Part shown: in pieces, positions 5,829 to 39,510 of the stretch
Layout: each line of letters starts with the position of its first letter
Numbering within the stretch: the first letter of the stretch is position 1
Origin: an uncultured delta proteobacterium
Lineage (GTDB): Bacteria; Desulfobacterota; Binatia; Binatales; Binataceae
Direction of reading: 5' to 3'
Assembly: GCA_963789835.1 (NCBI GenBank)
Contig: CAWBMF010000006.1
Span: 73,491 to 137,490 of the forward strand
Length of the DNA: 64,000 bases
Program-made: the position numbers and the translations under genes
Notes under the pieces: generated by a model
Told to the model about the DNA's origin: nothing
Databases searched by the model: none
Seen by the model: the letters and a program-made list of their open reading frames with translations, nothing else

Positions 5829-5843
5829 TACAATCGTGTTCCC

Positions 5844-7647: not shown

Positions 7648-7748
7648 GACCGAGAGCAAAGTAGTGCGCTGCGCACAACTTTGCGCTTGATACCGGGTGC
7701 AGGGGTCACCCCTGCCGAAGGAAGCGTGAAACCCACCGCGGGTTTCAC
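7648..7748 (-). repeat. REP-A copy 5 (H3-H2-H1)
   Basis: Identical to copy 1. Together with copy 4 it brackets 216 bp of other repeat modules. Confidence 0.9.
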
Positions 7749-7848
7749 ATACAAATCTTATTGTATGATTTTCCTACTTTCCGACGATGCGAAGTTTTCG
7801 CGCCACTTTGCGCGCAGCGCCCTCGCAAGCCATAATCGCTGATTCGCC

Positions 7849-9727
7849 ATGAACTACGACGTCATCATCGTCGGCGCCGGCCACGCCGGAATCGAAGCCG
7901 CGCTCGCCTCGGCCCGGATGGGCGCGAGCACGCTGATGCTCACGCTCAACCTCGATCACATCGGCCAGATGTCCTGCAACCCTGCCATCGGCGGTATCGG
8001 CAAGGGCCACCTGGTCCGCGAGATCGACGCCCTCGGCGGCGAGATGGGCCTGGCGGCCGACGAGACCGGAATCCAGTTTCGATTTCTGAACACGCGCAAA
8101 GGGCCTGCCGTTCGCGCCCGCCGCGCGCAGGCCGACAAGGCCGCGTATCGCAGCGCGCAGCAAGCGCGTGCTCGAGCGCACCGCCAACTTGCAGGTGCGT
8201 CAGGCGAGCGTCGAGCGCCTGATCGTCGAGGACGGTGTCGTGCGCGGCGTCGAGTCGCAGATAGGCGAGGTCTTCGAAGCGCCGACCGTCATCCTCACGA
8301 CCGGCACGTTCCTCAAGGGCCTCGTCCATATCGGGATGAAGAATTATTCGGCGGGCCGCGCGGGCGACTTCGCCGCGATGGGTCTCAGCGAGCATCTGGC
8401 GGAGTTGGGCTTTCGCATCGGGCGGCTCAAGACGGGCACCTGCCCGCGACTGGACGGACGCACGATCGACTACTCGGCGTTGGAGATCCAGCCGGGCGAC
8501 GAGCCGCCGCCGCCGTTCTCGTTCCGCACGGCGCGAATCACGCAGGACCAGATTCCCTGCCACCTGACCTTCACCAACTCGCGCACTCACGAGATAATCC
8601 GCGGCGGTATCGACCGCTCGCCGATGTACTCGGGCGTTATCCAGAGCAAGGGTCCGCGCTACTGTCCGTCGGTCGAGGACAAGGTGATGCGCTTTCGGGA
8701 CAAGGAGCGCCACCAGATTTTCCTCGAGCCCGAGGGCCGCGACACCGTCGAGGTTTATCCCAACGGCCTGTCGACCAGCCTGCCGCTCGACGTGCAGCTC
8801 GCGATGGTGCGCTCGATCGCCGGCCTCGAGCGCGCCGAGATAATGCGGCCCGGCTACGCGATCGAGTATGATTTCTCGGACCCGACCCAGTTGACCTCGT
8901 CGCTCGAGACCAAGCTGGTGCGCGGGCTGTTCTTCGCCGGTCAGATCAACGGGACCACCGGCTATGAAGAGGCGGGCGCGCAGGGCCTGATCGCGGGAAT
9001 CAACGCGGCGCTCAAGGTCCGCGGCGAGCCGGCGCTGATCCTGCGGCGCGACCAGGCTTATATCGGCGTGATGATCGACGACCTGGTGACGCGCGGTATC
9101 GGCGGCGAGCCGTACCGGATGTTCACCTCGCGGGCCGAGTACCGGCTGCTGCTGCGCGAGGACAATGCGGACCGGCGGCTGTCGCCGATTGGCGAGCGGC
9201 TGGGACTGCTCGACGCGTCGGCGGGCGCGCGCGTCCGCGCCAAGACGGAAGCCGTCCGCGGCGAGATCGAACGGCTCAAGGCGGCGCTGATACCGGCGTC
9301 CGCCGAGGTCAACGCGGCGCTCGCGGCGCATGGCTCGACGCCGATTGCGCAGCCGGTGCGCGCAATCGAGCTGCTCAAGCGGCCCGAGGTCGGCTACGAC
9401 GCGCTGATGAAGATGAGCGGCGCGGAGACCACGCTGAACCTCGACGAGGCGGCCGAGCTCGAGACCGAAATCAAATACGAGGGCTACGTGCGGCGGCAGG
9501 CGGACGCGGTCGAGCGGTTCGCGCGCCTCGAGGACACGACGATACCGGACTGGGTCGATTTCAAGGGCGTGATGGGCCTCTCGACCGAGGTCTGCGAGCG
9601 GCTATCTGCCGTGCGGCCGCGGTCGCTGGGGCAGGCGGCGCGGATGCCGGGAATCACGCCGGCGGCAATCTCAATCCTGGCGGTCCATATCAAGAGCCGG
9701 CGTGAGCGCAACGCCCGCGCGATTTGA
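7849..9727 (+). CDS. mnmG: tRNA uridine 5-carboxymethylaminomethyl modification enzyme MnmG/GidA (apparent frameshift near 8155-8160)
   Basis: [25 protein letters not shown]...[23 protein letters not shown] lies in the frame of 7849. The rest ([45 protein letters not shown]) lies in track ORF 8168..9727. The junction YRSAQ|[10 protein letters not shown] implies one extra base. Confidence 0.92.
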
Positions 9728-11565: not shown

Positions 11566-11666
11566 GTGGAACCCGCGGTGGGTTCCACACCTCCTTCGGC
11601 AGGGGTGACCCCTGCACCCGGTATCCAGAGAAGGAAATCGCGAAATGTTGCGGACAACATTTCGCT
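11566..11666 (+). repeat. REP-A copy 6 (H1-H2-H3')
   Basis: gtggaacccgcggtgggttccac ... ggcaggggtgacccctgcacc ... cgcgaaatgttgcggacaacatttcgc (alternative third hairpin). Fills the parA|parB spacer. Confidence 0.9.
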
Positions 11667-12604: not shown

Positions 12605-12623
12605 TGAAATCACGTCATTTAAT

Positions 12624-12718
12624 GTGGAACCCGCGGTGGGTTCCACACCTCCTTCGGCAGGGGTGACCCCTGCACCCGGGGTTAAGAGAATCGCGAAATG
12701 TTGCGGACAACATTTCGC
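12624..12718 (+). repeat. REP-A copy 7 (H1-H2-H3')
   Basis: Same three hairpins as copy 6, immediately after the parB stop. Confidence 0.9.
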
Positions 12719-14503: not shown

Positions 14504-14570
14504 AGCTTCGCGGACTCGCGCTTAAAACTGCCAGACAGGGACGAAGTCCTGCATCTTTTTCTTATCACTG

Positions 14571-14617
14571 GGTGCAGGGGTCACCCCTGCCGCGGGGGCG
14601 GGGCGCGCAGCCCCCGC
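14571..14617 (-). repeat. REP-A copy 9 (H2 + GC hairpin)
   Basis: ggtgcaggggtcacccctgcc then gcgggggcggggcgcgcagcccccgc. Inverted relative to copy 8. Confidence 0.8.
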
Positions 14618-14622
14618 GTCTT

Positions 14623-15204
14623 CTACGCGACGATGCGGTCGGAGAAGCCGGCTACGTCGTAGGTCATTATCAGGAGATCGCGGGAGCGGCCGCGGCGGTC
14701 TTCGACCCAATCGGACAGGACTGCTTCGACCTGGAAGCCGAGGTGCTCGAAGGCGGCGCGGGCGGAGGTTTGCTCCGTCGTCATCTGGGCGGTGATTTTC
14801 TTGAGGCCGAGCGAGCGTGCGAGATCGAATACTTCGGCGGCGAGGCGGCGGCCGAGGCCTGCGCCGCGGTAGCGCGACGACGTGATGATGCGGATTTCGC
14901 CGACCCGGCGGGTCCATCGCGCCTGTTCGAGGTGGACGCTGGCGTAGGCAGCCAGTTCGCCGTCGACTTCGGCGAGTAGCGTGATCGTGTGTCCGGCCCT
15001 GATGTTATCGACCCAGCTTTGGACGACGGCGCGGTCGGTGATGTCGGTGCGGAGGAAGAGCAGGTCGTCGACGGGAAGGTTGCGGGCGAAGTCGATTATC
15101 TTGTCGAGGTCATCGGGTTCCATGACGCGGATGACGGCGTTGTGTCCGTCGCGCAGTTTAAGCTGCATCGGATAGGGGCGATTGGTTTTTATCTGTTCGG
15201 ACAT
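14623..15204 (-). CDS. GNAT family N-acetyltransferase
   Basis: Inner ATG 15204 (MSEQIKTN) preceded by GGGGAG. Acetyl-CoA site SSRYRGAGLGRRLAAEVFDLARSLG (R/Q-x-x-G-x-G/A) and ...AAFEHLGFQ. Confidence 0.85.
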   Translation of the reverse strand: MSEQIKTNRPYPMQLKLRDGHNAVIRVMEPDDLDKIIDFARNLPVDDLLFLRTDITDRAVVQSWVDNIRAGHTITLLAEVDGELAAYASVHLEQARWTRRVGEIRIITSSRYRGAGLGRRLAAEVFDLARSLGLKKITAQMTTEQTSARAAFEHLGFQVEAVLSDWVEDRRGRSRDLLIMTYDVAGFSDRIVA

Positions 15205-15469
15205 TGGATGCTCCCCGAGTACCTCGAACTGAACTACTATGCGCAAGCGCTGCTGACGAGATTGCTCGTAAAACAGTCGTAAGCCTTGCGCGGAACGTTA
15301 TCCTTGATCAGAGCGGACGATCCGGCAAGCGCAGCAGCAAGAAAATACTGCTTGCGCTTTGGTGAGGATGGCTGCCAAACTTCGATGACCGCGGCACTGT
15401 CATTTCCAGGATTTTCTCGGCTGGACTCGGGCACTAGCCAGGGGAAATCCGGCACGGAGGTGAATTCGA

Positions 15470-17015
15470 ATGGCCGAAAAATCCGCATTTCCATCGTCGT
15501 CCAGCTACCGGCTGTCCACCCAGGACGCGACGTTCATATATGGCGAATCGCAGAGCGGACCGCTGCATATCGGATCGATCGGACTGTTCGAAGGGCGGGT
15601 CGATTTCAACGGCCTGCTGGGGCACTTTGAGGAACGGATGCATCTGGTGCCGCGCTACCGGCAGCGGCTGATCGAAGTCCCGCTGAACCTGGCGCATGCG
15701 ATGATGGAGGACGACCCGGAGTTCGCGATCGAAAACCATGTGCATCAGCATGAGCTGCCCGACGGGATGGGCGAAGGCGACGCGCTCGGCGAGATGATGC
15801 GGGTGTTTCAGAAACCGCTCGACCGCAAGCATCCGCTGTGGGCGCTGCACGTGTTCTACAACCTGGACGGGAATCGCACGGCGCTCATGTGGAAGGTGCA
15901 TCATTGCTTGGTCGACGGCGTGTCGGGGGTCGAGCTGCTGAAAGTGATGTACGACTTTCGCGCCGAGCCCGACGATATCCCGCAGCCGTCGGAGCCGTGG
16001 GTGGCGGCCAAGCCGTCGAGCCTGATACGGCGAATGGCGGATGCGCTGCGGAGTCAGATTCAAGGCGCGGTGAACGCGACGATCGACGCTGCGGTTGAGG
16101 CGATCGAGGATCCGGCGTCGGTGGCAGAGCGCGCGCGGCAGTTGGGCGAGGCGTCGCGAGTGATGACGGAGCTGGCGACGCGGCGAATCGTGCAGACGCC
16201 GTGGAATTCGACGCCGGTGACGCAGGACCGGCAGGTAGCATGGACGCGGCAGACGTTCGCGGACTTTCGCGCGATCAGGACGGCGTTCGGCGGCTCGGTC
16301 AACGATGTCGTACTGGCTATGTTGACCGAGGGTGCGGCGCGCTATCTCGAGCATCATGGGTACCCGGTCGAGGGACAGCAACTGTGTATCGGATGTCCGG
16401 TCAATGTGCGGCATCGCGACGAGCGGAGCTCGCTGGGGAATCGGGTTTCGATGATGTTCCCGACAGCGCCGGCGGCGCCGATGGATATCGTCGAGCGGCT
16501 GAAGTTGATTCATGAGGAGACTGAGCGAATCAAGGCTGCGGGGTCGGCGCAGGCTCTGGAAGCCATGATGGGGCTCGGCGACACGATTCCACCGAGTCTG
16601 ATCGGGCCGGCCTCGCGCGTGGCGACGACGATGCTGGACGTCGGGCGGACGGCTGGCGAAGTGGACCGACTGGAAGCCGCGGCCGGACGGCTTCGGGCTG
16701 CCGGCCTTCGGGATAAATTTTATCGCGACCAACGTGCCGGGCGTGCAGGTGCCGCAATATATTAACGGGCACGTATGTCTGGACATGGTACCGCTGGTGC
16801 CGCTCGGCGCGACGATGGGGTATGCAGTCGCAATACTCAGTTACTATAAGAGTTTATACTTCGGAATGATGGCGGACCCGCGCGTGATGCCCGACGTGGC
16901 GCTGATGAAGGCGTTCGTGGACGACGCCTTCGCGGAGCTGAAGCGTCGCTGCGTGGAGAAATCGATGGAGGCGTCTAGCGAGGAGCCGGAGCGGAAGAGC
17001 GCTAGCGGGGCGTAA
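15470..17015 (+). CDS. wax ester synthase/diacylglycerol acyltransferase family protein (apparent frameshift near 16630-16660)
   Basis: GGAGG SD. Catalytic HHCLVDGVSG (HHxxxDG). The C-terminal NFIATNVPGVQVPQYINGHVCLDMVPLVPL... continues in track ORF 16734..17015, whereas the listed tail of 15470..16765 is out of frame. Confidence 0.85.
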
Positions 17016-17057: not shown

Positions 17058-17156
17058 GTGGAACCACGGTGGTTCCACACCTCCTCGGCAGGGGTGACCC
17101 CTGCACCCGGGGTAAAGAGAAAAGAGAATCGCGAAATGTCGCGGACGACATTTCGC
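17058..17156 (+). repeat. REP-A copy 10 (H1-H2-H3')
   Basis: gtggaaccacggtggttccac ... ggcaggggtgacccctgcacc ... cgcgaaatgtcgcggacgacatttcgc. Confidence 0.9.
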
Positions 17157-17602: not shown

Positions 17603-17772
17603 GGCTATTCTCTCCGGCGAAAGTGTTGTATCCGTATCAACCCGCGCATCGTCCTACTAGTTACGGTCTCGCTACCGCGGGGCTTGGCTTTAGTCCGGCG
17701 CGGTTCATATTCTAATGGCCGGTTGCCAAGGCTCGCAGCTTGAATCTACAATTAGTGTCGGGAGATTAACGA

Positions 17773-19080
17773 ATGGCCGATCCGCTTAGCTTCGATGCGC
17801 TGGCGAGCAGCGAGCATGTGCTGTCCAGCGCGGAAAACTTCGTCCTCTACGTCCTGCTCGAAGCGGTCGCCCGCGGTGCGGGTGGTCCGGGGGGAGGCAG
17901 CCGCCTGCCGCTTAATCTCGGCGTCGTGATCGATCGATCGGGATCGATGTACGACGAGCGGCGGCTGGAATTCGTCGTCGAAGCGGTCAAATTCCTGGCA
18001 GACAACCTGACCGCCGACGACAAGATTTCAATCGTCGCGTTCGCCGACAAGGCCAAGGTGCTGATAACGCCGGAGGCGGCGCGCGACAAGAGCGCGATCA
18101 AGCGCGCGATCGACGATATCGATCTGCTGGAAATCGGCGGCGGCACGCAGATGGCGCTCGGGATGCGCGCGGCGATCGACGAGGTCAAGAAGAATCTGAG
18201 TCCCGATCGGCTGAATCGCGTGCTGGTGCTCACCGACGGACAGACCTACGAAGAGACGGCGTGTATCGAGCTGGCCGAGAAGAACCGCGACCAGATTTCG
18301 TTCTCGACGATGGGCGTCGGAGTCGAGTTCAACGAGAAGCTGCTGCAGCGGATCGCGCAGGACTCGAACGGCAAATATCATTTCATCGGCGACCCGGCCG
18401 AGATTCCGCAGATTTTCGAAGACGAGCTCGAGGGCCTGCGCTCGGTTAGCGTGCGTAATGGGCGAATCGAGGTGACGCTGTCGCAGGGCGTGCAGGTGCG
18501 CGAGGCCTTTCGCGCGTCGCCGGAAATTTACGTGCTCGGCACGCCGCTGGTCGGCGAGGATCGCAAAATCGGCTACGAGATTGGCGACTTGCAGGCCGGC
18601 GTGCCCGGCTCGGTGCTGCTGACGCTGGTGCTGCCGCCGCGCAAGCCGGGGCAGGTCAGAATTCTGCAGAGCAATTTCCATTACGAAGTGCCGGGCGGCG
18701 CCGAAGGAACTGTCGCGTGCGATCTGACGGTCGATTACACGCTCGATCGCACGCTGACCAGCAAGCGCAACGGGCGCGTGATGAACCTGGTCGACCAGGT
18801 CTCGATCGCCAAGCTGCAATCGAAGGCGGAAGAGGAGCTGAAGGCGGGCAACGTCGATCGCGCGACCCGGCTGCTCGGCAATGCGCTGCAGGGCACGCAG
18901 CGGATGGGCAACGTCAAGGCGACGCAGGCGCTGTCGGGTCTGATCGATCAGATCAAGAAGACGCAGACGCTGCAGACCAAGGCGGCGAAGACCACGCTGC
19001 TGCAGGCGCAGGCGGTCGTGCGCAAGACGCAGATGCTCGATCCCGAAGCGTTGAAGGATTTCCAGAAGCCGGGTGATTAA
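17773..19080 (+). CDS. von Willebrand factor type A (vWA) domain protein with intact MIDAS and Q/T/K-rich helical tail
   Basis: GGGAGA SD. MIDAS residues DRSGSM ... GGGTQM ... LTDGQ. The C-terminal 200 aa are not recognised and end in KATQALSGLIDQIKKTQTLQTKAAKTTLLQAQ. Confidence 0.9.
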   Translation: MADPLSFDALASSEHVLSSAENFVLYVLLEAVARGAGGPGGGSRLPLNLGVVIDRSGSMYDERRLEFVVEAVKFLADNLTADDKISIVAFADKAKVLITPEAARDKSAIKRAIDDIDLLEIGGGTQMALGMRAAIDEVKKNLSPDRLNRVLVLTDGQTYEETACIELAEKNRDQISFSTMGVGVEFNEKLLQRIAQDSNGKYHFIGDPAEIPQIFEDELEGLRSVSVRNGRIEVTLSQGVQVREAFRASPEIYVLGTPLVGEDRKIGYEIGDLQAGVPGSVLLTLVLPPRKPGQVRILQSNFHYEVPGGAEGTVACDLTVDYTLDRTLTSKRNGRVMNLVDQVSIAKLQSKAEEELKAGNVDRATRLLGNALQGTQRMGNVKATQALSGLIDQIKKTQTLQTKAAKTTLLQAQAVVRKTQMLDPEALKDFQKPGD

Positions 19081-19145
19081 ATTTTTTACGACATGAAGAT
19101 ATTTGCAGTGACAACACTTCGAACTTACCTGCGAGGACTTAGACC

Positions 19146-19794
19146 ATGATCAAATGCGGCGAATGCGGCTACGAAAATATGGACGGACTTGACTACTGCG
19201 ACGGATGCGGCGCGAAGCTCGCCGCCGCCGCTCCTGGCGCAGCGCCGGCCGCCGAGGCGCCCCCCGCGGCAGCTCCCGAAACAGCTCCGGCACCGGCAGC
19301 AGCTCCCGCTGAAACCGCATCGGCAGACGGAGCGCCGGCTCCGAGCGCCGAAGCGCCCGCGGCTGGAACTACCCAAGTCGGAAGCGCCTACCGGTGAGAT
19401 CAAGCCTGAGGCGGCGCCCGAGAGCGCGCCCGCAGCAGTCGCTGCCGGAGCACCGTTCAAGGCGAAGCTGTCTGTCGTTCGCGGCGGCCGCAAGGGACAG
19501 GAATTTCCGCTCGAAGACGGCAACAATCTGATTGGCAGATGGGATCCGGAGACGGGATCGTTTCCGGAAGTGGATCTCGACGCCGACGATCCCGAAGCGA
19601 AGATCTCGCGCAAGCATGCGTTGATTCGAATCGACGCCGGCAAGATCACGATCGAGGATATCGGCAGTCTCAACGGCACCTACGTGAATCGTCAGCCGCG
19701 GCTTTCGCCGGGGAGTCCCGCCGAAATCAAGTCGGGCGACGAAGTGATCATCGGGAAAACGTTCTTAAAGCTGGTGGTAGAACCGATATCTTGA
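19146..19794 (+). CDS. zinc-ribbon + Pro/Ala linker + FHA domain protein (apparent frameshift near 19355-19385)
   Basis: MIKCGECGYENMDGLDYCDGCGAKL (CxxC..CxxC) in track ORF 19146..19397. FHA NLIGRWDPE...ISRKHALIRIDAGKITIEDIGSLNGTYVN in track ORF 19189..19794, which has no credible start codon of its own. Confidence 0.8.
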
Positions 19795-19865
19795 CCGCTA
19801 TCCCTCCAGGCGCGCCCGGAAGTACGCGCGTGCGCGGAAGTTGAGGAGGGCCTTAGACAATCGCC

Positions 19866-21621
19866 ATGAATGCGGGTGAGGAGCTCACCGAGGGCCATCT
19901 GCTCGACGGTCGATACCGTGTCAAAAAGGTAATCGGCGTGGGCGGGATGGGACGCGTGTACCTGTCCAACGACACGCGGCTGGCGAACCGGCCGGTGGCG
20001 GTCAAGGAGATGATCGTCGGCGACGGGATCCAGGAGAAGAAGGCCGTCGAGGATTTCACGCGCGAGGCCAACGTGCTCGCGCGCCTGTCGCATCCGGGGA
20101 TACCGACGCTGATCGATCACTTCGCCGAGAACTCGCGGCAATACCTGGTGATGGAATTTGTCGCGGGCGGCGATTTGCAGGGCGTGCTCGACAAGCTGGG
20201 GCCCAAGGGCAAAGTCGCCGAGGACAAGGTGCTGCGCTGGGCGCGGCAGATGCTCGAGGTGCTCGAGTTCCTGCATGCGCAGAAGCCGCCGATAATTTAT
20301 CGCGACCTGAAGCCCGGCAATATCATGATCGACAAGGACGGGCGCGCGATGCTGATTGATTTCGGAATCGCGCGCTTCCTGCCGCCGGGCGGACGCGGCA
20401 CGCAAATCGGTTCGGTCGGCTACGCGCCGCCCGAGCAATACATGGGCAAGGTCGAGCCGCGATCGGATTTATATTCGCTGGCCGCCACCATGCATCATCT
20501 GCTGACCGGGCGCGACCCGCAGCTCGAGCCGCCGTTCAGCTTTCCTCCGCTGCGCGCGCTGGCGCCGGAAGTGTCGGTCAAGACGGCCGACGCGATCATG
20601 CGGGCGCTCGAGCAGGACGTGACCAAGCGGCCGGCGTCGGCAAAAGAATTCAAGCGCGCTCTTCCGGAGCCGCCGCCGGATAATCGGTCGGGGCAATTGG
20701 GGAGCGCGGGACTGGCAGGCTCGTCGAGTCCGATGTCGACGCAAGCGACGGTGGTGTTGAACAGCGAGCCGGAGCCGCCGCCGGCGCCACTCCGAACGAT
20801 GACGCCGTGGAAGCAGGAGGTGCCGTCGAAGCCGGCGGCGTCATCCAAACCTGCGACGGCATCCAAGCCTGCGGCGTCATCAAAGCCTGCGGCGCCGGCG
20901 TCGTCGATGCCGACGATCGTGTTGAGCGAGCCGGTCGCGGCGGCGGACAGAATCAAGAGCCGGCAGCGCGGCGGCCAAGATAGCGCCGCAGATCAAACGC
21001 GCGATGGAGCTGACGGGCCGCGCGCGCAGCATGATCGAGCGCGGGCTCAAGGCGGGGATGTCGTCGATCGCGTCGCCGAGTGCGTCGTCGACGGCCAAGA
21101 CGCAGGAGCTGAAGCCGGCGGTGGCGGCCTCGTCGTACCGGTCGCACCTCGGCTTGACCGACGACTCCGAAAAGGCGGACACGAAATCGCGGACGGGGTC
21201 GCGGGTGTCTTCGTCGCGCACTTATAAGCCGCCGATTTCGAGCGGCGCGCGTTCCGGCGCGAGCAGCAGCAACAACAACCATCGCCCCGACGCGTCGGTC
21301 GCGCCGGCCAGGCTGGTCTCGCGCGGCGACGAGATCGAGTTCGGCATTTTCGGGATGCGCACGATTATCGGACGATCGCTCGACGGGACCGACAAGCTCG
21401 ATATCGATCTGAAGAAGATCGCGCAGAACGGCGATCGAGTGTCGCGGCGGCATGCGGAGATCGTGCTGCGCGGCTCGGACTACTATATCCGCGATCTCGG
21501 CAGCCTGAACGGCACCTATATCGCGGGGCTCGGCAAGCTCGGGCGCGACCAACTCTACAAATTGAAGGATCGCGACCAGGTGGTGCTTGGTGGTGCTATA
21601 TTGCAGTTTCGGAGAGGCTAG
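19866..21621 (+). CDS. Ser/Thr protein kinase fused to C-terminal FHA domain (apparent frameshift in 20926-21000)
   Basis: GVGGMGRVY, VAVKEM, IIYRDLKPGNIM, DFGIAR, GSVGYAPPE. Then a KPAASS-repeat linker. FHA IIGRSLDG...VSRRHAEIVLRGSDYYIRDLGSLNGTYI in track ORF 21004..21621. The tail of 19866..21227 is out-of-frame junk. Confidence 0.85.
20829..20900 (+). repeat. 4 x 18-bp coding tandem repeat (KPAASS units) in the kinase-FHA linker
   Basis: aagccggcggcgtcatcc / aaacctgcgacggcatcc / aagcctgcggcgtcatca / aagcctgcggcgccggcg encode KPAASS KPATAS KPAASS KPAAPA. Confidence 0.8.
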
Positions 21622-21627
21622 CGGCGC

Positions 21628-23683
21628 ATGATCACGTGTCCCGAATGCGGCCAGGAGGCGCCCGACGACGCCAAGTTTTGCGATCGATGCGGCCAGGGGC
21701 TGTCGAAAGCGGCTTCCTCGGTGGCGAATTACACGCCGACGCGGCCGACGCCGTTGACGGCGGGCGCGCAGCTGAAGGGCGGAATCGAGATCGTCGCGCT
21801 GACGAGTCAGACCTCGATTGAAAATCGCTACAGCGCGAAGCGGGTGCGCGACGGCAAGACCGAATCGATCGCATTGCGCGAGCGGCTGGGGCCGAATCCG
21901 GCAGAAGACGTCGTCGAAGAAGCGCCGATAGTCGAGGCGCCCAAGCCGGCGCCGGCTGCGCGTGTCGAAGATCCCAACGGGCCGAGCGCGAAGACGGCGG
22001 AGCTGAAACCGCCGGCGGCGCAGACCAACGGGACCGCCTCGCCGCCGCAGACGCACGCCGCGAGTGCGCCGGTCGCGGCGTCGGCGAGCGCGGAGTCGTC
22101 GGGCGGCGAGGGAATCCAGTCAGCGGTCGAGGCCGCAGGCGAGTCCCGCGGCGATCGAGGAAGCTGCGGAAGAAGCGTCGCCGGATGAAGCGAGCGAGGC
22201 GGCCGAGGCCGCCGTCGTCGCGGAAACCGAGCAAGCTCCAAGTAATAACGACGGCGCTGATGAAGATGCGCCGCCGATGGCCGGTGAGGATCTCGGCGAA
22301 GTGTTCGGGCGGGTGCTCGCGCTGTCGCAAACGATCAGTCATCCGGCGTTTCAGCGCGCGACCGAAGGGTTCGCCGAGAACGGGCGCGTGTACCTGGTCT
22401 ATGCCGACGAGGAACTTAAGCCGCTGCGGCGCGGTTCTTCTAAGATGAGCGAGCCGGAAGCGATAGCGAGCGCAATTCAGATCTGCCAGGCGATTTCGTT
22501 TGTGCATCGCCGGGCCCTGCGGCTCAACGACATCTGCCCCGAATCGATTGCGGTGGCGAAGGACGGCCGTCTCAAGCTGACGGGGCTCGATTACGTCAGC
22601 AACGACAACGAGCTGCAGAGCGAACCGATTTTCAACGACGGCTACACGGCGCCCGAGATTTATCGCGGCAAGAAAGTGGACAAGCGCGCCGATATTTTTT
22701 CCGCCGGCGCGATTCTCTACACGTGGCTGACGGGTGCGCGGATTCCCAGCGAGAGCTGGCGCGAAGAGGCGGGGCTGGTGCAATTCTATCCGCCGCATGT
22801 GGTCGCGCCGCGGCTGGAGAAGGCGATTCGCCGCGCGATCGCGTTCAGTCCGGCCGACCGTTTTCATACGATCGACGAGTTCAAGGCCGAGCTGATTGCG
22901 CTTAGCGGAACTATCCGGCTGCGCGCGGCCGCGATGACCGACGTCGGCCGCGTGCGCGAGCATAACGAGGACTCGGTGCTGGCGGTCGAGTACGTGCGCG
23001 AGTCGCTGATCGAGCCGGCGCAGAGTCATTTGTTCGTCGTGGCGGACGGGATGGGCGGGGCGGAGGCGGGCGAAGTCGCTTCTGCAATTGCCGTCGAAAC
23101 AATCCGGAGTTATGTTGAGGGTCAGCTCGAAACCGCACGTGGAGAGGTTAAAAACGTGTCGGAGCTGCTGACGGGCGCGCTCGAAGAAGCCAATTCGAAG
23201 ATTATCGAGTATGTCGCGAGCCATCCGGAGTCGCGCGGAATGGGTTCGACCGGCGTGTGCGCGATCGTCACGCCCGCCGATGCCGCGGTGGCGTGGGTCG
23301 GAGACAGCCGCGGCTACCTGATGGAGGGCGCGGCGCTGCGCCAGGTGACGAAGGATCATTCACTGGTGGCGCGACTGGTCGAAATCGGGCAGATAACCGC
23401 CGAGGAAGCGCTGACGCATGAGCATAAGAACGTGATCACGCGATCGCTCGGCGCGCGCCAGAGCGGGCCGGCCGGAGCCGAGGCGATTGCGTCAAAGCTC
23501 AAGCGCGGAGACAAACTGCTGCTCTGCAGCGACGGGCTGACGGCGCATGTGATGGACAATCAGATCCGCGACATCCTGGGGCGCAATGCCGATCCGTTCG
23601 ACGCGGCGCGCGAGTTGATCGCCGCGGCCAACGCCGGCGGCGGTACCGATAACATTTCCGTGATTGTAGTGTATGCGAGCTAA
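21628..23683 (+). CDS. zinc-ribbon + degenerate (pseudo)kinase + PP2C phosphatase fusion (apparent frameshift near 22100-22150)
   Basis: MITCPECGQEAPDDAKFCDRCG. Kinase-like lobes with key residues replaced (IALRE for VAIKE, LNDICPES for YRDLKPGN, TGLDY for DFG) but YTAPEIY retained. PP2C motifs GRVREHNEDS, VADGMGG, CSDGLT, GGTDNISVIVV. Track ORFs 21628..22188 and 22064..23683. Confidence 0.85.
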
Positions 23684-23715
23684 GGCGGGAGCGACGCGCA
23701 AGTAAATATCGACGA

Positions 23716-26115
23716 ATGGCAACCTCGCCCAAAGATTCAGCGGCGCAGCAGACCGGACCGCTCGAGGCCGGCACTCTCCTGCAGGCGCGCTACAAAGTCG
23801 AGCGGCTGCTCGGCGGCGGCGGGATGGGGATGGTGTATCTCGCGCACGATCAGCGCCTGGCGAATCGTCCGTGCGCGATCAAAGAGATGGTCGATCATTT
23901 TATCGACCAGGCGCAGCGGATCGAGGCCAACGAATATTTCGCGCGCGAAGCCGACACGCTCGCGCAACTGAAGCATCAGGCAATTCCCGCGATCACCGAT
24001 CGCTTCGAGCTCGCCAATCGCCATTACCTGGTGATGGAGTACGTCGAGGGGCGCAACCTCGAGGAAGAACTGGCGGCGCGCGGCGAGCCTCTGCCCGAGG
24101 GGCTGGTGATCGATATCGCGCGCCAGTTGTGCGACGTGCTCGTGTACCTGCACGGGCTGGTGCCGCCGATAATCTACCGGGACATGAAGCCGTCGAACGT
24201 GATGCTCAATTCGAACGGGCGCGTCGTGCTGGTGGATTTCGGAATCGCGCGGCTGTTCAAGGCAGCGCGCAAGGGCACGATGATCGGCACGCTGGGCTTC
24301 GCGCCGCCGGAGCAGTACCAGGGATTGGTCGATCCGCGCAGCGATATTTATTCGCTCGGCGCGACGCTGCATTACGTGCTGACCGGGCGCGACCCGGAGA
24401 AATTTCCGCCGTTCAGCTTTCCGCCGGTGCGCGAGCTGCGGCCGGGAGTGTCGAGCAACCTGGCCGGCGCGATCGATGCGGCGCTCGCCTACGAGATGGA
24501 CGGGCGGCCGCCGCGAGTACAGGATTTCCGCGACATGATGCTCTACGGGCGCGGGCTCGCGGAGGACGGCGGGCGGGTGAGCTCGACCAGCGGCACGGGC
24601 GGGCTGTCGCAGCTCGATCAATCATTCGAATACGACGAGCCGCCGATCGCGTACAGCGAAGCCGCGCAGCCGGTGCGGCGATCGATCGGTTTGGTGATTT
24701 TCCTGATGATACTGGGCGGCGCCGCGTTCGGCGGCACGTACCTTTATTCCAGCCCGGAACTGCAGTTGCGGCTCGGGCTGAAGCCGCTGTTCGACGGACT
24801 GCCGTGGAAGCATGAGCAGTTGCTGGCCAAGGCGCGCGAGAATCCGCTCGAATTTTCACAGCTGACGCTGGCGCTTTCGACTCGCGAGGGTATCGCGCTG
24901 GGAGCGCCGCAAGCGCAATTCAAGGACACCGAACTGACCAACGCGCGCTACCTGAAGTGGACGGCGAGCTTCAAGAATCTGCTGGCGGGGCTGGAGGGGC
25001 GCGACGAAAAAGTCGAGGCGCGCTTTTTCGATCCGAACGGGCTGCAGATCGCGGTCAGCGACGTAAATGCTTTTATCGGGCCGGCGCAGACGACCGCCGA
25101 CTTCAGCGGAGTGGCGCTGATGCCGACGATGACCGATGAACCGCCCGGCACCTACAAGGTGGCGCTCTACTCGGGCGACAACCTGCTGCAGCAGGAAGGC
25201 TTCGTCGTCAACCAGGACACGAGCGCGAAGAATGCGGCGGCGGCAGCTGATGCGGCGGCCGCGGCGGCGGCGAAAGAGGAAGAGCGCAAGCGCGACGAGG
25301 AAGCGCGCAAGATAGCGATGATCGACGAGCGGCGCGCCAAGCCGTTGCAGCTTCGCAATATCAACTTTCTCAACACCACCAAGACGGGGACGGCGCTGTC
25401 GGGCGCGACCGACTCGTTCAACGTGTCGAAGGTGCTGTTCGTCGGCTGGCAGGTCAGCTTCCAAAACCGGCTGTACCAGCTGGAGCCGGGCCAGTACCGC
25501 GTCGATGCGGCGTATATCGGGCCGGACGGCCGCACGCTGGGCAGCGTCGACGACTATCAGCCGGTTTCGATGAGCATGAAGACGGTGACGTTCAGCGGAC
25601 GCGTCGGCAACTCGCACGGCGGAGCGTTTCTGCCGGGCATCTACACGGTCAACTTTTATTTGAACGGACAATATTTTAGCGCGAAGAAATTCGAGGTCAT
25701 CGCCGACGCGGGCGGCAATCCGTACGCGACGTATCCGGGCTCGAGCGGCGCGATTGGCAGCACGATGAGCGGCGGCAGTTCGGGGTCGGCGTCGTCGTCG
25801 GGCGGCGGCATGCTGGGGCCGGTGATCGCGACCGGCACTATCAGCGGGCTGCGCAGCGGCGGCAATCCCGAGATGGATCTGAGGCTGCGTCCGCAGCCCA
25901 ATGGATTTCTGCATGGCGAGCTGGTGATCCATCAGGCGGGCTTTGGGATGACGCCGATCGACGGCTACGTGCGCGGCGACCATCTGCAGTTCCAGGTCCC
26001 GTACGGCACCGAGACGTACTACTTCGAGGGCGAGCGGCGGAGCGATCAGATCAGCGGGACATTCGAATCGACGCCGTCGGGTGAGCGCGGCACCTGGGTC
26101 ACCCAGGCGAACTGA
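23716..26115 (+). CDS. receptor-type Ser/Thr protein kinase (kinase, one TM helix, about 450-aa extracytoplasmic region)
   Basis: GGGGMGMVY, CAIKEM, IIYRDMKPSNVM, DFGIAR, GTLGFAPPE. TM helix SIGLVIFLMILGGAAFGGTYLY. The ectodomain has two similar modules separated by an Ala/Glu/Lys-rich helix, plus a C-terminal small beta-domain. Confidence 0.92.
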   Translation: MATSPKDSAAQQTGPLEAGTLLQARYKVERLLGGGGMGMVYLAHDQRLANRPCAIKEMVDHFIDQAQRIEANEYFAREADTLAQLKHQAIPAITDRFELANRHYLVMEYVEGRNLEEELAARGEPLPEGLVIDIARQLCDVLVYLHGLVPPIIYRDMKPSNVMLNSNGRVVLVDFGIARLFKAARKGTMIGTLGFAPPEQYQGLVDPRSDIYSLGATLHYVLTGRDPEKFPPFSFPPVRELRPGVSSNLAGAIDAALAYEMDGRPPRVQDFRDMMLYGRGLAEDGGRVSSTSGTGGLSQLDQSFEYDEPPIAYSEAAQPVRRSIGLVIFLMILGGAAFGGTYLYSSPELQLRLGLKPLFDGLPWKHEQLLAKARENPLEFSQLTLALSTREGIALGAPQAQFKDTELTNARYLKWTASFKNLLAGLEGRDEKVEARFFDPNGLQIAVSDVNAFIGPAQTTADFSGVALMPTMTDEPPGTYKVALYSGDNLLQQEGFVVNQDTSAKNAAAAADAAAAAAAKEEERKRDEEARKIAMIDERRAKPLQLRNINFLNTTKTGTALSGATDSFNVSKVLFVGWQVSFQNRLYQLEPGQYRVDAAYIGPDGRTLGSVDDYQPVSMSMKTVTFSGRVGNSHGGAFLPGIYTVNFYLNGQYFSAKKFEVIADAGGNPYATYPGSSGAIGSTMSGGSSGSASSSGGGMLGPVIATGTISGLRSGGNPEMDLRLRPQPNGFLHGELVIHQAGFGMTPIDGYVRGDHLQFQVPYGTETYYFEGERRSDQISGTFESTPSGERGTWVTQAN

Positions 26116-26143
26116 TTCAGAAGGGAAAATCACTTCATTAAAT

Positions 26144-26209
26144 GTGAAACCCGCGGTGGGTTTTCACACTTCCTTCGGCAGGGGTGACCCCTGCACCCAG
26201 TGTTAAGAA
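26144..26209 (+). repeat. REP-A copy 11 (H1-H2 + tail)
   Basis: gtgaaacccgcggtgggttttcac acttccttc ggcaggggtgacccctgcacc cagtgttaagaa. Lies inside the signalling operon, between the receptor kinase and the membrane FHA gene. Confidence 0.9.
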
Positions 26210-26265
26210 ATTGTGCTTGAACCTGGACCTATGCGCGCGTAATGCTGAAGAGTGACACGTAAATC

Positions 26266-27135
26266 ATGGCGAGTAACGTCTCACAAGAAAAGCTTCTCTT
26301 CTACGCTGCTGCCGGTGCGCTCGGCGGTTTCGCCGCGTGGGGCGTGTCGGAGCCAATCCTGGGTATCCGCCAGGTTTACGCGCGCGACATTCTGTTCGGT
26401 GCGCTGATCGGCGCGCTCATCAGCGCGTTCCTCGCGTCGATCGAAACGCTGAGCGTCGGGCAGATGCGCCAGGCGGCGCGGCGATTCGTAGTCGGCGGTC
26501 TTATCGGCGCAGCGGGCGGAGCGTTGGGTTTGATTGTCGGCGAATTTGCGTTCGACCTGTTGGGCGGACTCAACGGCCGAATCCTCGGATGGAGCGTGCT
26601 CGGAATCGCGGTCGGGCTCGGCGTCGGATCGGCGTCGGGATCGGCGGCGCGGCGGCGCAATGGCGCAATCGGCGGCGTGCTCGGCGGTGCGCTCGGTGGA
26701 TTTTTCTACCAGAGCCTGACGACCACCTTTCCGCAGGCGTTCGGGCGCGCGATCGCGATCATCATCCTCGGCGCGCTGATCGGATTCTTCATCGGGCTGG
26801 TCGGCGAGCTGCTCAAGCGCGGCTGGCTGATGGTCGTGCGCTCCCAGAGCCGCAATGCGCGCGAGGGCCGCGAATATCCGTTGATCAAGGGCGTGACGAT
26901 CATCGGACGCGCCGAGGAAAGCGATATCGGACTGTTCGGCGATCAGTCGGTGCTCGGCAGTCATGCGATCATCCGGCGCGAAGGCAAGAATTTCATAATC
27001 AGTCCGACCGGCGGCCAGATATTCGTGAATCGACAACCGGTCGCGGGCCGCTATGCGCTGAAGAGCGGCGATCGGCTCGAGGTGGGCGGCACGCTGTTTC
27101 TCTTCCGCGAGCGAGCCCAGGCGGCGCAGCGATAG
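26266..27135 (+). CDS. polytopic Gly-rich membrane protein with C-terminal FHA-like domain
   Basis: Several hydrophobic Gly/Ala-rich helices (AAGALGGFAAWGV, ILFGALIGALISAFLA, GGLIGAAGGALGLIVG, AIAIIILGALIGFFIGLVG). Then TIIGRAEESDIGLFGDQSVLGSHAIIRREGKNFII...FVNRQPV, FHA-like but lacking the S-x-NGT turn. Confidence 0.75.
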   Translation: MASNVSQEKLLFYAAAGALGGFAAWGVSEPILGIRQVYARDILFGALIGALISAFLASIETLSVGQMRQAARRFVVGGLIGAAGGALGLIVGEFAFDLLGGLNGRILGWSVLGIAVGLGVGSASGSAARRRNGAIGGVLGGALGGFFYQSLTTTFPQAFGRAIAIIILGALIGFFIGLVGELLKRGWLMVVRSQSRNAREGREYPLIKGVTIIGRAEESDIGLFGDQSVLGSHAIIRREGKNFIISPTGGQIFVNRQPVAGRYALKSGDRLEVGGTLFLFRERAQAAQR

Positions 27136-27153
27136 AGAGGGCTGAGCAGAATC

Positions 27154-27927
27154 GTGGGGAGCCAGCCGACCTTCAGAATTCGAACCGCGCTCCTCGTCAC
27201 GATCTTTTCGATTCTAAGTTCGATGCTGGCGGGGTGCTCGACCGTCAACGAAGGCGGCGGCACGGCCGCGGCGCCGGCGACCTCGATGCAAAAGCTCGAG
27301 TACTACCCGTACCAGGTCAAGGGCTACCAAAACAGTTATCCCAAAAAGACCATCCTGATTTTGATACCGACCGACGCGCGCGATGTGACCGGCAACGCGG
27401 CGCCGCTCAACGGCAATCCCGCGATTGGCGTAATCACGGATTCGAACGGCAACGTTACCGAACGGATGTACAGCTCGCCGCTCGGCCCAATCGTGCAGGG
27501 AGCGATCGGCCGCTCGGCCGATGAGGCGGGGATGAGCGCGTCGGCGTCGAGCGAGACGGCGTACCAGCCGAGTATCAAGAACACCACCGAGTACGTGCTC
27601 GCGAGCAAGATTCGCCGATGCTGGGCGAAGAAGGCTCCCGGCCCGAGCAGCCAGTACGGTCCGGTCTGGCGGACGACGGCGGATTTCGTGCTGGACGTTT
27701 CAATCTACAAGCCGCCGTTCAGCGTGCCGTTCTGGACCGGGAGCACCAGCGATACCTACGACGATCCGCCGGTGGGGTCGTTCGGGCTCGGTTCCGAGGA
27801 CGAAGCGGGCATCTACGACGAGCCGGGCGAGGTGCTGTCGGTCGCGCTGACGCGATCGGTGGCGGCGATATTCCAGCGCCAGGACTTGCGTAATCTGATG
27901 CTCGAAGACGACATAAAATCCCAGTAG
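27154..27927 (+). CDS. lipoprotein of unknown function
   Basis: GTG start. Signal FRIRTALLVTIFSILSSMLAGC has a lipobox (L-A-G-C). The mature part is not recognisable. 18 nt after the preceding gene. Confidence 0.7.
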   Translation: MGSQPTFRIRTALLVTIFSILSSMLAGCSTVNEGGGTAAAPATSMQKLEYYPYQVKGYQNSYPKKTILILIPTDARDVTGNAAPLNGNPAIGVITDSNGNVTERMYSSPLGPIVQGAIGRSADEAGMSASASSETAYQPSIKNTTEYVLASKIRRCWAKKAPGPSSQYGPVWRTTADFVLDVSIYKPPFSVPFWTGSTSDTYDDPPVGSFGLGSEDEAGIYDEPGEVLSVALTRSVAAIFQRQDLRNLMLEDDIKSQ

Positions 27928-38332: not shown

Positions 38333-39406
38333 CTAGACCAATTCGATTGGATGCTCGCGCTTGGGCGTGACGCGGCCGACGATGGCGGCCTCGCGATGGC
38401 CGCAGTTCTGAAGTTCGGCGAGCAGGGCGAGAGCTTGATCGTCGGGGAGCGCGATCAGCAGGCCGCCCGAGGTTTGGGGGTCGAATGCGATCGTCGCGAT
38501 CTCGTCGGAGACTTCGTCGGAGATGCGGACGCTGGGCGCGTAGAACTCGCGATTGCGCTCGCCGCCGCCGGGGATCATTCCGGCGCGGCATTGCTCGAGC
38601 ACGCCCGGCAGCAGCGGCAAGTCGGATTCCTCGAACACGAAGGTGACGCGGCTGCCCTCGGCCATTTTGAGCGCGTGGCCGACGAGGCCGAAACCGGTGA
38701 CGTCGGTGGCGGCGTGGACGTCGTAGTTGAGCATCGCGGATGCGGCGGCGGCGTTGAGTTGCGTCATCGAGCGGACGGCGGCCTGGTAGGATTCGTCGCC
38801 GAGGGCGTCGCGCTTGAACGCGGTCATCAGGATTCCCGTGCCGAGCGCCTTGGTCAGCACGAGCGCGTCACCGACTTGCGCGCCGACATTGCGGACGATT
38901 CGACGCGGATCGATCACGCCGGTGATGGCCATGCCGAATTTCACTTCTTCGTCGGCGACAGTGTGACCGCCGACGATCACGACGCCTGCCTCGCGCGCTT
39001 TCTCGGCGGCGCCGCGCAAAATATCGGCGAGCATCTCGCCGGGCAGACCGCTTTGCGGCCAGCATACGATGTTGAGCGCCGTGCGCGGCACCCCGCCCAT
39101 CGCATAGACGTCCGACAACGCGTTGGCCGCGGATATTTGGCCGTAGGTGAAAGGATCGTCGACCACCGGCGTGAAAAAATCGACGGTGTTGACGATTGCG
39201 AGGTCGTCGGAAAGACGGAACACTCCGGCGTCGTCGCCCGTGGAGATTCCGACGAGCAAATCAGGGTGGCTCGGCAACTCGAGCCGCGCGAGGACTGCGG
39301 AGAGGTCCGCCGGACCGAGCTTACCGGCTCAACCCGCAGCCTTGCACCGCGCAGTCAGGCGAACGAGATCGCCCCGCGAGGGATTGTTGTCCTTGTTCCT
39401 GGACAT
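38333..39406 (-). CDS. selD: selenide, water dikinase SelD, Sec-containing form (in-frame UGA at 39331..39329)
   Basis: Track ORF 38333..39277 begins at an internal TTG. The same frame upstream reads MSRNKDNNPSRGDLVRLTARCKAAG-TGA-AGKLGPADLSAVLARLEL-PSHPDLLVGISTGDDAGVF. TGA occupies the catalytic G(C/U)xxK position. Downstream motifs: DFFTPVVDDPFTYGQISAANALSDVYAMGG, VIVGGHT. Confidence 0.9.
39309..39328 (-). promoter_or_regulatory. candidate SECIS-type hairpin immediately 3' of the selD UGA
   Basis: The mRNA reads UGA GCCGG UAAGCUCGGU CCGGC, a 5-bp GC stem with a G/U-containing loop. It is a short stem and has not been checked against a covariance model. Confidence 0.35.
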
Positions 39407-39477
39407 CGCGGCTATTGTCGCGCATCGGGCAGGCGAAGTCAGCCGCGCACCAGACAAAAATGTTTTTCATTCGATCC

Positions 39478-39510
39478 AGGGTTCGCCTTGCTCCGGTGGC
39501 AAGGCGAACC
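39478..39510 (-). terminator. 13-bp perfect stem-loop between the orphan secreted-protein gene and selD
   Basis: GGGTTCGCCTTGC tccggtg GCAAGGCGAACCC, 54 nt downstream of the stop at 39564. No adjacent U-tract, so terminator function is uncertain. Confidence 0.35.

Follow-up and report, generated by a model that had tools for sequence, protein, structure and literature searches.

We describe a cluster of seven genes, g1 to g7, in a 64-kb stretch of DNA from an uncultured soil-dwelling member of the Binataceae, assigned to Candidatus Binatus (Binatota; contig CAWBMF010000006.1; the whole stretch is referred to here as the window) that probably encodes a chromosomal, vertically inherited Ser/Thr phospho-switch built around a von Willebrand factor A (vWA) hub protein resembling archaeal ArnB. 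Judged by homology, the cluster brings together an ArnB-like hub (g1) and an ArnA-like reader (g2), with two apparently active Hanks-type kinases (g3 and g5) and a PP2C phosphatase (g4) alongside. The cluster opens no new category of system; the ArnAB switch and the composition called the TerY-P triad are already known, and what is new is a bacterial version with envelope components specific to the Binataceae.

The seven genes span positions 17773-27927, all on the plus strand, with open reading frame (ORF) calls that agree with an earlier description and intergenic gaps of, in order, 65, 71, 6, 32, 150 and 18 nt (Table 1). That earlier note, drawn up from the sequence alone, had read the cluster as a vWA protein, forkhead-associated (FHA) domain proteins, Ser/Thr kinases, a kinase-like protein fused to PP2C and a lipoprotein, set between housekeeping enzymes and having no recognisable output module. 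Pfam agrees with it on every domain it named (g7 belongs to no family and has the lipobox), annotation of the window and of related flanks bears out the housekeeping surroundings, and Pfam and NCBIfam matches support its remark that vWA, Ser/Thr kinase and PP2C make up the composition of the TerY-P triad. The core of the cluster is no orphan: as set out below, g1 and g2 have homologues in ArnB and ArnA, and the vWA family is linked to zinc ribbon-FHA (ZnR-FHA) proteins, kinases and PP2C in several phyla.

Table 1. Features of the seven-gene cluster and associated repeats (positions in the window; aa, amino acids; TM, transmembrane; REP, repetitive extragenic palindrome; MITE, miniature inverted-repeat transposable element).
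Feature	Position	Strand	Description
Promoter candidate	17723-17752	+	sigma-70-like, TTGCCA-18-TACAAT, 20 nt 5' of g1, 10/12 consensus matches
g1	17773-19080	+	cytoplasmic ArnB-like vWA protein, proposed hub, 435 aa
g1 MIDAS motif DRSGS	17932-17946
g1 MIDAS motif GGGT	18136-18147
g1 MIDAS motif LTDG	18229-18240
g1 C-terminal helical region	18895-19038		five T[Q/T]x[L/M] sites
g2	19146-19794	+	ArnA/FraH-like ZnR-FHA protein, ~216 aa frame-corrected
g2 zinc ribbon	19155-19208		CxxC-x10-CxxC
g2 linker motif PTGEIKP	19387-19407		in Ala/Pro-rich linker
g3	19866-21621	+	soluble Hanks-type Ser/Thr kinase-FHA fusion, ~583 aa frame-corrected
g3 linker motif AKTQELKP	21094-21117
g4	21628-23683	+	zinc ribbon, pseudokinase and PP2C, ~685 aa frame-corrected
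g4 zinc ribbon	21637-21690
g4 insert motif AKTAELKP	21988-22011		in low-complexity insert between pseudokinase lobes
g5	23716-26115	+	receptor Hanks kinase with periplasmic ectodomain, ~799 aa
g5 TM segment	24685-24747		single, followed by ~450-aa periplasmic part
REP/MITE-like repeat	26127-26208	none	intergenic, inside 150-nt g5-g6 spacer
g6	26266-27135	+	polytopic glycine-rich membrane protein with FHA-like domain, ~289 aa
g7	27154-27927	+	lipoprotein, ~257 aa
g7 lipobox LAGC	27226-27237		Ser at +2
Other REP/MITE-like copies	146-214, 5064-5139, 7695-7750, 11570-11619, 12607-12687, 14558-14592, 17085-17108

The product of g1 is predicted to comprise a vWA domain (Pfam VWA, E = 1e-19), a beta-sandwich and a C-terminal helical region, with neither a signal peptide nor a TM segment predicted; it also scores weakly above the Pfam vWA-TerF-like cut-off (33.1 vs 29.4 bits). 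The MIDAS (metal-ion-dependent adhesion site), previously described as intact, has all three of its motifs, and its D, S, S, T and D residues are invariant across 34 diverse members of the wider family. When g1 was compared with PDB sequences by phmmer, it matched the actinobacterial vWA protein 4FX5 (E = 3e-15, g1 residues 33-404), ArnB (8S05_A, E = 1e-11, g1 residues 51-402) and 5A8J, which is vWA2/ArnE of Sulfolobus acidocaldarius (E = 7e-7). A family profile built from the 34 diverse g1 relatives placed the same three entries (8e-37, 3.5e-34 and 3.8e-26, respectively) ahead of all eukaryotic vWA domains. Identity between g1 and ArnB is low and falls in the twilight zone. We take 8S05 to be the ArnA-ArnB co-crystal structure of PMC12852372, with two complexes per asymmetric unit and a full-length 223-aa ArnA chain. 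Pfam identifies a zinc ribbon and an FHA domain (E = 8e-15) in g2, the latter with the canonical residues GR, SRKH and NGT, and this FHA domain matches the ArnA chains 5A8I and 8S05_C (E ~1e-10). The cysteine spacing of the g2 zinc ribbon is that of C21/C24/C35/C38 in ArnA (PMC12852372). On these alignments, g1 and g2 are homologues of archaeal ArnB and ArnA.

The vWA domain of ArnB sits as an insertion within a beta-sandwich, and the phosphorylation sites are on a helical bundle at the C-terminus (PMC12852372, PMC6509490). In Sulfolobus, as long as ArnB is unphosphorylated, the zinc finger of ArnA docks weakly at the junction of its beta-sandwich and helical bundle. Several threonines in an elongated pair of ArnB helices are next phosphorylated by the Hanks kinase ArnC, the complex becomes tight as the FHA domain of ArnA binds the resulting phosphothreonine (pThr) sites, and the state is undone by PP2A (PMC12852372, PMC7472852). 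HMMER aligns the LIETT/SIETT threonines of ArnB with the g1 segment GTQRMGNVKATQALSGLIDQIKKTQTLQT. Five T[Q/T]x[L/M] sites, which are putative phosphorylation sites, lie in the last 65 residues of g1, and 65 of 69 orthologues have all five. FHA domains classically prefer a hydrophobic residue at +3.

The resemblance to the S. acidocaldarius pair thus covers the MIDAS-bearing vWA domain, beta-sandwich and Thr-rich helices of g1, the ZnR-linker-FHA layout of g2, the adjacency of the two genes, and the presence of Hanks kinases (ArnC and ArnD in the archaeon) and a Ser/Thr phosphatase in the system. The two differ in that the bacterial host precludes control of an archaellum, so that we envisage an Arn-like mode of working rather than membership of the Arn network; no archaellum or flagellar genes were found in the window or the related flanks. 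In addition, in place of a PP2A there is here a PP2C phosphatase that shares its polypeptide with a zinc ribbon and a pseudokinase, the kinases and phosphatase are encoded in the switch's own cluster, and there are four further components: a kinase-FHA fusion, a receptor kinase, a membrane FHA-like protein and a lipoprotein.

Both g3 (Pfam Pkinase, E = 7e-41; motifs VAVK, YRDLKPGN and DFG) and g5 (E = 6e-36; CAIK, YRDMKPSN and DFG) keep the Lys, the catalytic Asp and DFG, and both kinases are apparently active as judged from these residues. In g3 the kinase is joined to a canonical FHA domain (E = 2.5e-15) by a low-complexity linker of ~200 aa. The ectodomain of g5 was modelled with AlphaFold2 (AF2; pLDDT 74) as two beta-sandwiches with a long helix between them and, at the C-terminus, a beta domain of eight strands. 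Foldseek returned only generic Ig/FnIII/MG-like matches for this model, from which no ligand can be proposed, and the homologues of the ectodomain are Binatus-type sequences among the best 120 of 594.

The fourth gene encodes, in order, a zinc ribbon, a degenerate kinase N-lobe (IALRE), a low-complexity insert, a kinase-like C-lobe (LRLNDICPES, GLDY) and PP2C. Pfam recognises the zinc ribbon, the PP2C domain and, weakly, Pkinase (E = 1e-14), and an intact g4 orthologue exceeds the NCBIfam Stp1_PP2C cut-off (239.3 vs 230 bits). In the kinase-like region the beta3 Lys is replaced by Arg and the catalytic-loop Asn by Ser, in keeping with the earlier description of a kinase-like protein fused to PP2C. 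Because neither the catalytic Asp nor the DFG Asp is conserved in the family, and the beta3 position is Arg across homologues, the sequence identifies this module as a pseudokinase family fused to a predicted active PP2C. The g4 protein aligns end to end with an Armatimonadota protein (E = 2e-62) and with a 658-aa protein from a Deinococcus-type contig, L090 (E = 6e-40).

The linkers of g2, g3 and g4 are of low complexity and poorly conserved, with the exception of one motif in each: APTGEIKP, S[S]TAKTx[E/D]L and PxAKTAEL[K/R]P, respectively. In g2 the Thr is present in 67/71 sequences, the acidic residue in 70/71 and I/L in 65/71; in g3 the corresponding counts for Thr, E/D and Leu are 70/71, 71/71 and 70/71, and in g4 each of the three is found in 67/67. 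A strict T-x-[E/D]-[L/I] linker motif occurs in fewer than 0.5% of shuffled sequences. We infer that the motifs in these disordered linkers are probably phospho-acceptor and FHA docking sites. It is the number of species-level orthologous loci, ~60, that allows such short conserved motifs to be read from disordered linkers.

The homology of g1 and g2 to ArnB and ArnA leads to a concrete mechanism for bacterial modules of this kind, in which zinc-ribbon tethering would be combined with multisite pThr-FHA clamping on a vWA hub. In this mechanism the receptor kinase g5 and the soluble kinase g3 would phosphorylate the five sites in the g1 tail, and also the conserved T-x-[E/D]-[L/I] linker motifs of g2, g3 and g4. 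The FHA domains of g2 and g3 would read these marks to form a multivalent complex on g1, for which the zinc ribbons of g2 and g4 would act as constitutive tethers, and the pseudokinase of g4 would dock PP2C on the kinases or the hub and so reset the switch. The free MIDAS of g1 would bind an acidic ligand; the Glu or Asp of the linker motifs could be that ligand, either instead of or besides the motifs' role as FHA docking sites. More speculatively, g6 and g7 would form a lineage-specific effector or co-sensor facing the envelope. We suggest an effector role by analogy, because an FHA-tagged ABC transporter and an FHA-tagged transcription regulator adjoin homologous modules in other lineages; on the same analogy, the previous assertion that the cluster lacks an output module may be wrong, as g6-g7 may themselves be the output. 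The suggestion that the cluster forms a trans-envelope sensing machine is a plausible one.

To establish how widely the arrangement is kept, we used the pseudokinase-PP2C portion of g4 as query against one genome from each species and recovered 80 loci (61-93% identity), nearly all labelled as Candidatus Binatus, Binataceae or "delta proteobacterium" metagenome-assembled genomes. Twelve domain segments of the window were mapped onto these species-representative loci, and a locus was counted as complete when all twelve were found. In 60/60 complete loci the 12 segments are colinear and on one strand, with protein identity reaching down to 45-60%; the remaining 20 loci are without at least one segment, and most of these are short or truncated contigs. 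Because of this colinearity, the seven-gene arrangement is not a chance juxtaposition, and the gene order, for which a check in other genomes had been proposed, is conserved in ~60 species. The g2 zinc-ribbon segment has the highest median identity of the cluster (96.6%), followed by g6 (92%), and identities in the core range from 71-96% for g1 to 68-97% for g6. The periplasmic parts diverge faster than the cytoplasmic core, with medians of 70% for the g5 ectodomain and 66% for g7.

The flanks of the cluster are constant only inside the genus, where 21 loci have a glyoxalase gene upstream and 40 have gnd downstream. We annotated the flanks of two distant Binataceae loci (L067 and L042) by ORF calling and Pfam; there the order of the cluster is kept, and its neighbours encode a FAD monooxygenase and PAS-HisKA-REC, thiolase-like, phosphodiesterase, PaaA-like, dNK and pentapeptide proteins. 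Neither the 64-kb window nor the annotated +/-10 kb of related flanks contains type VI secretion system (T6SS), ter or divisome genes, and so the absence of a known machine next door, which had been claimed for the window, extends to relatives in that no such machine is consistently adjacent. A megablast search of the region against PLSDB gave no match that would point to plasmid origin. The term REP had hinted at an origin in Pseudomonas, which was rejected, every related locus being from a Binataceae metagenome-assembled genome.

The vWA hub has relatives well beyond the Binataceae. An exhaustive search of 1.8 billion cluster representatives with g1 returned 271 family representatives at E < 1e-30, most of them ~420 aa long, with full-length alignments at 28-42% identity; those with names belong to Armatimonadota, Chloroflexota and Deinococcus. 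We read the gene context of six family proteins from other lineages. An Armatimonadota locus (L085) encodes a kinase, ZnR-Pkinase-PP2C, vWA and ZnR-FHA, and a Chloroflexota locus (L087) vWA and ZnR-FHA only. Another (L088/L089) has two ZnR-FHA proteins, further FHA proteins including FHA-Trans_reg_C, PP2C, vWA and a ZnR receptor kinase, and L091 has Pkinase-PP2C, three ZnR/FHA proteins, vWA and two kinases. In L092 there are ZnR kinases, ZnR-PP2C, vWA, a kinase and a ZnR-FHA-FHA-ABC transporter. The Deinococcus-type contig L090, whose vWA protein is identical to a D. xinjiangensis protein from a cluster 37% identical to g1, carries kinase-ZnR-SNF2, ZnR-kinase-PQQ, the 658-aa PP2C protein and vWA, with NERD-UvrD and an integrase adjacent.

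In these contexts the proteins that accompany the vWA protein recurrently bear a small zinc ribbon. By analogy with the crystal contact between the ArnA zinc finger and ArnB, this ribbon may be an address tag for the vWA hub. Three putative outputs stand beside homologous modules: a fusion of FHA with an OmpR-type winged helix (L088:7159-7842, minus strand), the ZnR-FHA-FHA-ABC transporter, which is reminiscent of mycobacterial Rv1747 (L092:13733-16741, plus strand), and the kinase-ZnR-SNF2 helicase fusion (L090:1-1134, plus strand). The survey as a whole suggests one chassis with interchangeable effectors across lineages.

A four-gene operon of D. radiodurans, DRA0331-DRA0334, encodes a vWA protein, a Ser/Thr protein kinase, an FHA/FraH-like protein and PP2C; biochemical work is reported to support antagonism between the FHA protein and the PP2C acting on kinases (bioRxiv 10.64898/2026.01.23.701218). 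The Binataceae cluster shares this four-part composition, and the 658-aa protein with which g4 aligns comes from contig L090, whose proteins may or may not be orthologues of those encoded by the DRA genes. The systems differ in the N-terminal module of DRA0334, of which residues 210-368 are called a "KI-FHA" domain (bioRxiv 10.64898/2026.01.23.701218), whereas Pfam and PADLOC find the corresponding modules of g4 and the L090 protein kinase-like. In the latter (L090:6028-8004) the kinase-like residues are 250-391, matched by the PADLOC MkoA and PD-T4-6 kinase models, and if DRA0334 is orthologous to this protein, its "KI-FHA" domain may be a pseudokinase. Contig L090 also differs from the Binataceae cluster in having no Pfam FHA domain on record and no counterparts of g3, g6 and g7, and it looks like a mobile or defence region.

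A bolder proposal joins these strands: an ArnB-like vWA protein would be the hub of an ancient, prokaryote-wide chassis in which small N-terminal zinc ribbons address FHA adaptors, kinases and PP2C and multisite pThr locks and releases the assembly, the Binataceae chassis would gate the g6-g7 envelope effector, and the T-x-[E/D]-[L/I] motifs would be dual ligands, bound by FHA domains when phosphorylated and by the MIDAS when not. Taken whole, we regard this combination as rather unlikely. If true, the archaeal Arn switch, the TerY-P triad and the Deinococcus operon would share one mechanism, and the Binataceae cluster would represent a new class of output.

The Binataceae-specific parts of the cluster are the g3 kinase-FHA fusion, g5 with its Ig-like ectodomain, g6 and g7. 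The g6 protein is polytopic, with about five glycine-rich hydrophobic helices of GxxxG type and a C-terminal cytoplasmic domain that matches Pfam FHA/YscD-like (E = 6e-10); its N-terminal 195 aa match no Pfam family. Its FHA domain keeps the Arg and His, but Leu replaces the phosphate-binding Ser and the Asn-Gly is absent. Of the three phospho-Thr readers that had been counted, two are therefore canonical and the third is degenerate. For g7, which has no Pfam, NCBIfam or PADLOC family, an AF2 model of moderate confidence (pLDDT 67) has an alpha/beta fold like those of LptE, PqiC (DUF330), CsgG and PelC. Foldseek placed 2IQI first (E = 1e-7), then HpaA, FlgT, CsgG, LptE and PelC, which amounts to a generic outer-membrane lipoprotein fold, and the homologues of g7 are Binatus-type sequences among the best 120 of 418. 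With lenient Pfam thresholds, no meaningful match emerged for g7, the N-terminus of g6, the C-terminus of g1 or the ectodomain of g5.

The place where the cluster varies is the spacer between g5 and g6, which ranges from 79 nt to 4.2 kb among relatives and in several of them contains unrelated genes (desaturase-like, ZIP-like and PaaX-like, by eye). In four loci of distant Binataceae (L033, L030, L035 and L048), 2-4 kb is inserted exactly at this junction, including a gene for a 619-aa polytopic membrane protein, and the junction is a recurrent insertion point. By comparison, g6 and g7 are never apart in relatives, with a median gap of 15 nt. Given this variable spacer, its unrelated insertions and the constancy of the g6-g7 pair, g1-g5 probably form a tight core and g6-g7 an adjoining, separable pair with its own promoter. 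The description of the cluster as one operon is accordingly doubtful for g6-g7. As had been reported, the 150-nt gap of the window holds a REP-like repeat, which recurs elsewhere in the window in 10 or more copies, 90-100% identical, and many times in related loci; changes in its copy number may account for spacer size classes of ~500 nt and ~800 nt in relatives. The repeat is ~75 nt long and includes the hairpin GTGAAACCCGCGGTGGGTTTTCAC, and nearly all of its at least 11 copies lie in the first 17 kb of the window.

Several points weigh against a phospho-switch of this design. The FHA domain of g6 is without two pThr-contacting residues, which weakens the idea of a phospho-regulated output, and g6-g7 may be functionally independent, since unrelated genes split them from g1-g5 in some relatives. 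No ArnB C-terminal domain family appeared when Pfam was run on g1 (E 0.01) or on the C-terminal half of g1 (E 10), although the presence of such a model in the library was unchecked. If the three frame breaks in the window discussed below are real, the system of this strain is inactivated. Finally, the output of ArnAB is unsettled in archaea as well (PMC12852372).

The alternative that survives best concerns the output rather than the switch, and is in that respect partly compatible with the phospho-switch. The cluster could control envelope growth or division in the manner of the oriC-proximal PknA/PknB-PstP-FhaA/FhaB(FipA) system of actinobacteria, with g5 monitoring the envelope and FHA proteins, among them g6 in the role of FhaB/FipA, regulating wall or division proteins encoded elsewhere. 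Like its mycobacterial counterpart, the Binataceae cluster has two Hanks kinases, a PP2C and two FHA proteins of which one is membrane-anchored, and its periplasmic ectodomain and outer-membrane-type lipoprotein fit such a role. NCBIfam similarity to FhaB_Rv0019c and to PknB-type kinases is weak and everywhere below the cut-offs. The mycobacterial PknA/PknB cluster is located near oriC, and in Binatus the seven genes lie ~10-15 kb from yidC/mnmE/mnmG/rsmG/parAB and from a change of sign in GC skew; this proximity to the origin is nevertheless confined to the genus, and the flanks of distant Binataceae differ. Moreover, the cluster and related loci contain no PASTA domains, rodA/pbpA or other wall genes (the PknB_PASTA_kin score is 183-199 bits against a cut-off of 450, and the g5 ectodomain is a beta-sandwich rather than PASTA), and the vWA hub and zinc-ribbon partners are foreign to the actinobacterial system. 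We consider this function unlikely.

A second alternative, which we judge quite unlikely, is that the genes form an anti-phage or conflict system of TerY-P type, in which the triad would sense infection and trigger g6 as a membrane-disrupting, glycine-zipper-like effector. The composition of the cluster is that of the triad, a TerY-like vWA protein with PP2C and a Ser/Thr kinase (Anantharaman, Iyer & Aravind 2012, as described in PMC11090510), and TerY-P-like modules have been reported as defence systems in their own right (Gao et al. 2020, cited in PMC11090510). Zinc ribbons recur as fusion partners in both, relatives of g1 show the triad elsewhere, the Deinococcus-type relative sits among a kinase-ZnR-SNF2 helicase, NERD-UvrD and an integrase, and g6 is polytopic and glycine-rich. 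For the kinases there are matches to PADLOC kinase families, of a kind generic to Hanks kinases. Against this, inheritance is vertical, with colinearity in all complete loci, stable housekeeping neighbours within the genus and no variable island, and g1 and g6 are highly conserved, unlike fast-evolving defence genes. The zinc ribbons here are N-terminal, on g2 and g4, whereas in TerY-P they are C-terminal on the active kinase (an OB fold in defence variants); the active kinases g3 and g5 have neither fusion and carry instead an FHA domain or a TM segment with an ectodomain. FHA proteins are also integral to this chromosomal and syntenic locus, and no ter, McrBC/CoCoNuT or other defence genes are linked to it in the annotated, housekeeping flanks. 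PADLOC has no match for g1, g2, g6 or g7, a point of little weight given that the vWA proteins of family relatives are likewise unmatched and TerY-P may be absent from the library.

It is also conceivable, if improbable, that the locus is decaying and that g2, g3 and g4 are pseudogenes in this strain. Each of these genes, and so three of the seven, runs over two frames in the window as a result of 1-nt insertions near 19366, 20960 and 22137, and breaks occur in near-identical contigs too, partly at nearby positions. In a comparison with four near-identical contigs, however, the extra bases of the window were absent or compensated and the contigs had indels of their own elsewhere; L084, for instance, has the additional base at 20960 and at 22137 as well, and a 1-nt deletion close by makes up for it. 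The positions of the breaks thus differ among near-identical assemblies, and all are 1-2 nt indels in GC-rich, low-complexity linkers. Among 84 related loci, g2, g3 and g4 are single ORFs in 67-71 (g2 in 71) and each of the seven genes is one ORF in 67-74; an intact 583-aa g3 is found in L082 and L083, and loci with short-read-assembler contig names (for example L007, L019, L023 and L024) read through. Because the genes are intact in most relatives, and because this is a long-read metagenome assembly in which other genes of the window, those for WS/DGAT (wax ester synthase/diacylglycerol acyltransferase; 14989-16786) and mnmG (8168-9727), are broken too in the pattern of long-read consensus error, the frame breaks are probably errors of the assembly consensus. 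Gene calls in the window need frame correction against relatives. The WS/DGAT gene is a 514-aa ORF in sister contigs and fragmented in the window, and the mnmG ORF begins at profile position 105. Programmed frameshifting was rejected as an explanation of the three breaks; ~60 species read one frame, and near-identical contigs break elsewhere.

PpkA, the kinase of the P. aeruginosa T6SS threonine-phosphorylation pathway, also carries a vWA domain, and the resemblance of the cluster to that pathway (PpkA/PppA/Fha1/TagQRST), pointed out earlier, stands as one of composition, with kinase, PP2C, FHA and outer-membrane lipoprotein in both and a vWA domain somewhere in the system. That the genes are a T6SS regulator whose structural genes lie outside the window is nonetheless highly improbable, given the absence of T6SS genes from the window and annotated flanks and of TagR/S/T counterparts, FHA domains unlike TagH/Fha1 (TIGR03354 VI_FHA at 26-36 bits vs a cut-off of 120), a vWA domain on a separate cytoplasmic ArnB-like protein rather than in the periplasmic part of a kinase, and fold matches for g7 that are generic to outer-membrane lipoproteins.

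As a phospho-switch, the cluster bears on Hanks-type kinase signalling, which is poorly understood in bacteria beyond a few models, and on the vWA/PP2C/kinase triad, which is without an established bacterial mechanism. No such pair other than ArnB and ArnA has both crystal structures and phosphorylation data, and the Binataceae version would couple the switch to a receptor kinase and envelope proteins. Because its host is uncultured, the cluster is of use chiefly for comparison and for supplying constructs for experiments in vitro.

The promoter candidate upstream of g1 is a consensus match only, in a region with three sigma-70-like sites where 2.2 are expected. Upstream of the cluster, the window contains the housekeeping genes yidC, mnmE, mnmG, rsmG, parA, parB and WS/DGAT, with yidC (1312-3030) on the minus strand and mnmE (5598-7070), mnmG, rsmG, parA and parB on the plus strand. 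The sign of the GC skew switches at ~6-8 kb and the lowest G+C content of the window, 0.574, is at 4001-6000. The window appears to adjoin a replication origin; no dnaA was identified in it. Downstream of the cluster lie gnd, zwf, and genes for glucokinase, DeoC, luciferase-like oxidoreductases, SelD-like and SelB proteins, an ABC permease and a UvrD-like helicase. The SelD-like protein, of the AIR-synthase family, and the selenocysteine elongation factor SelB are encoded together at 38333-42169 on the minus strand, and because of this pair the organism probably makes selenoproteins.

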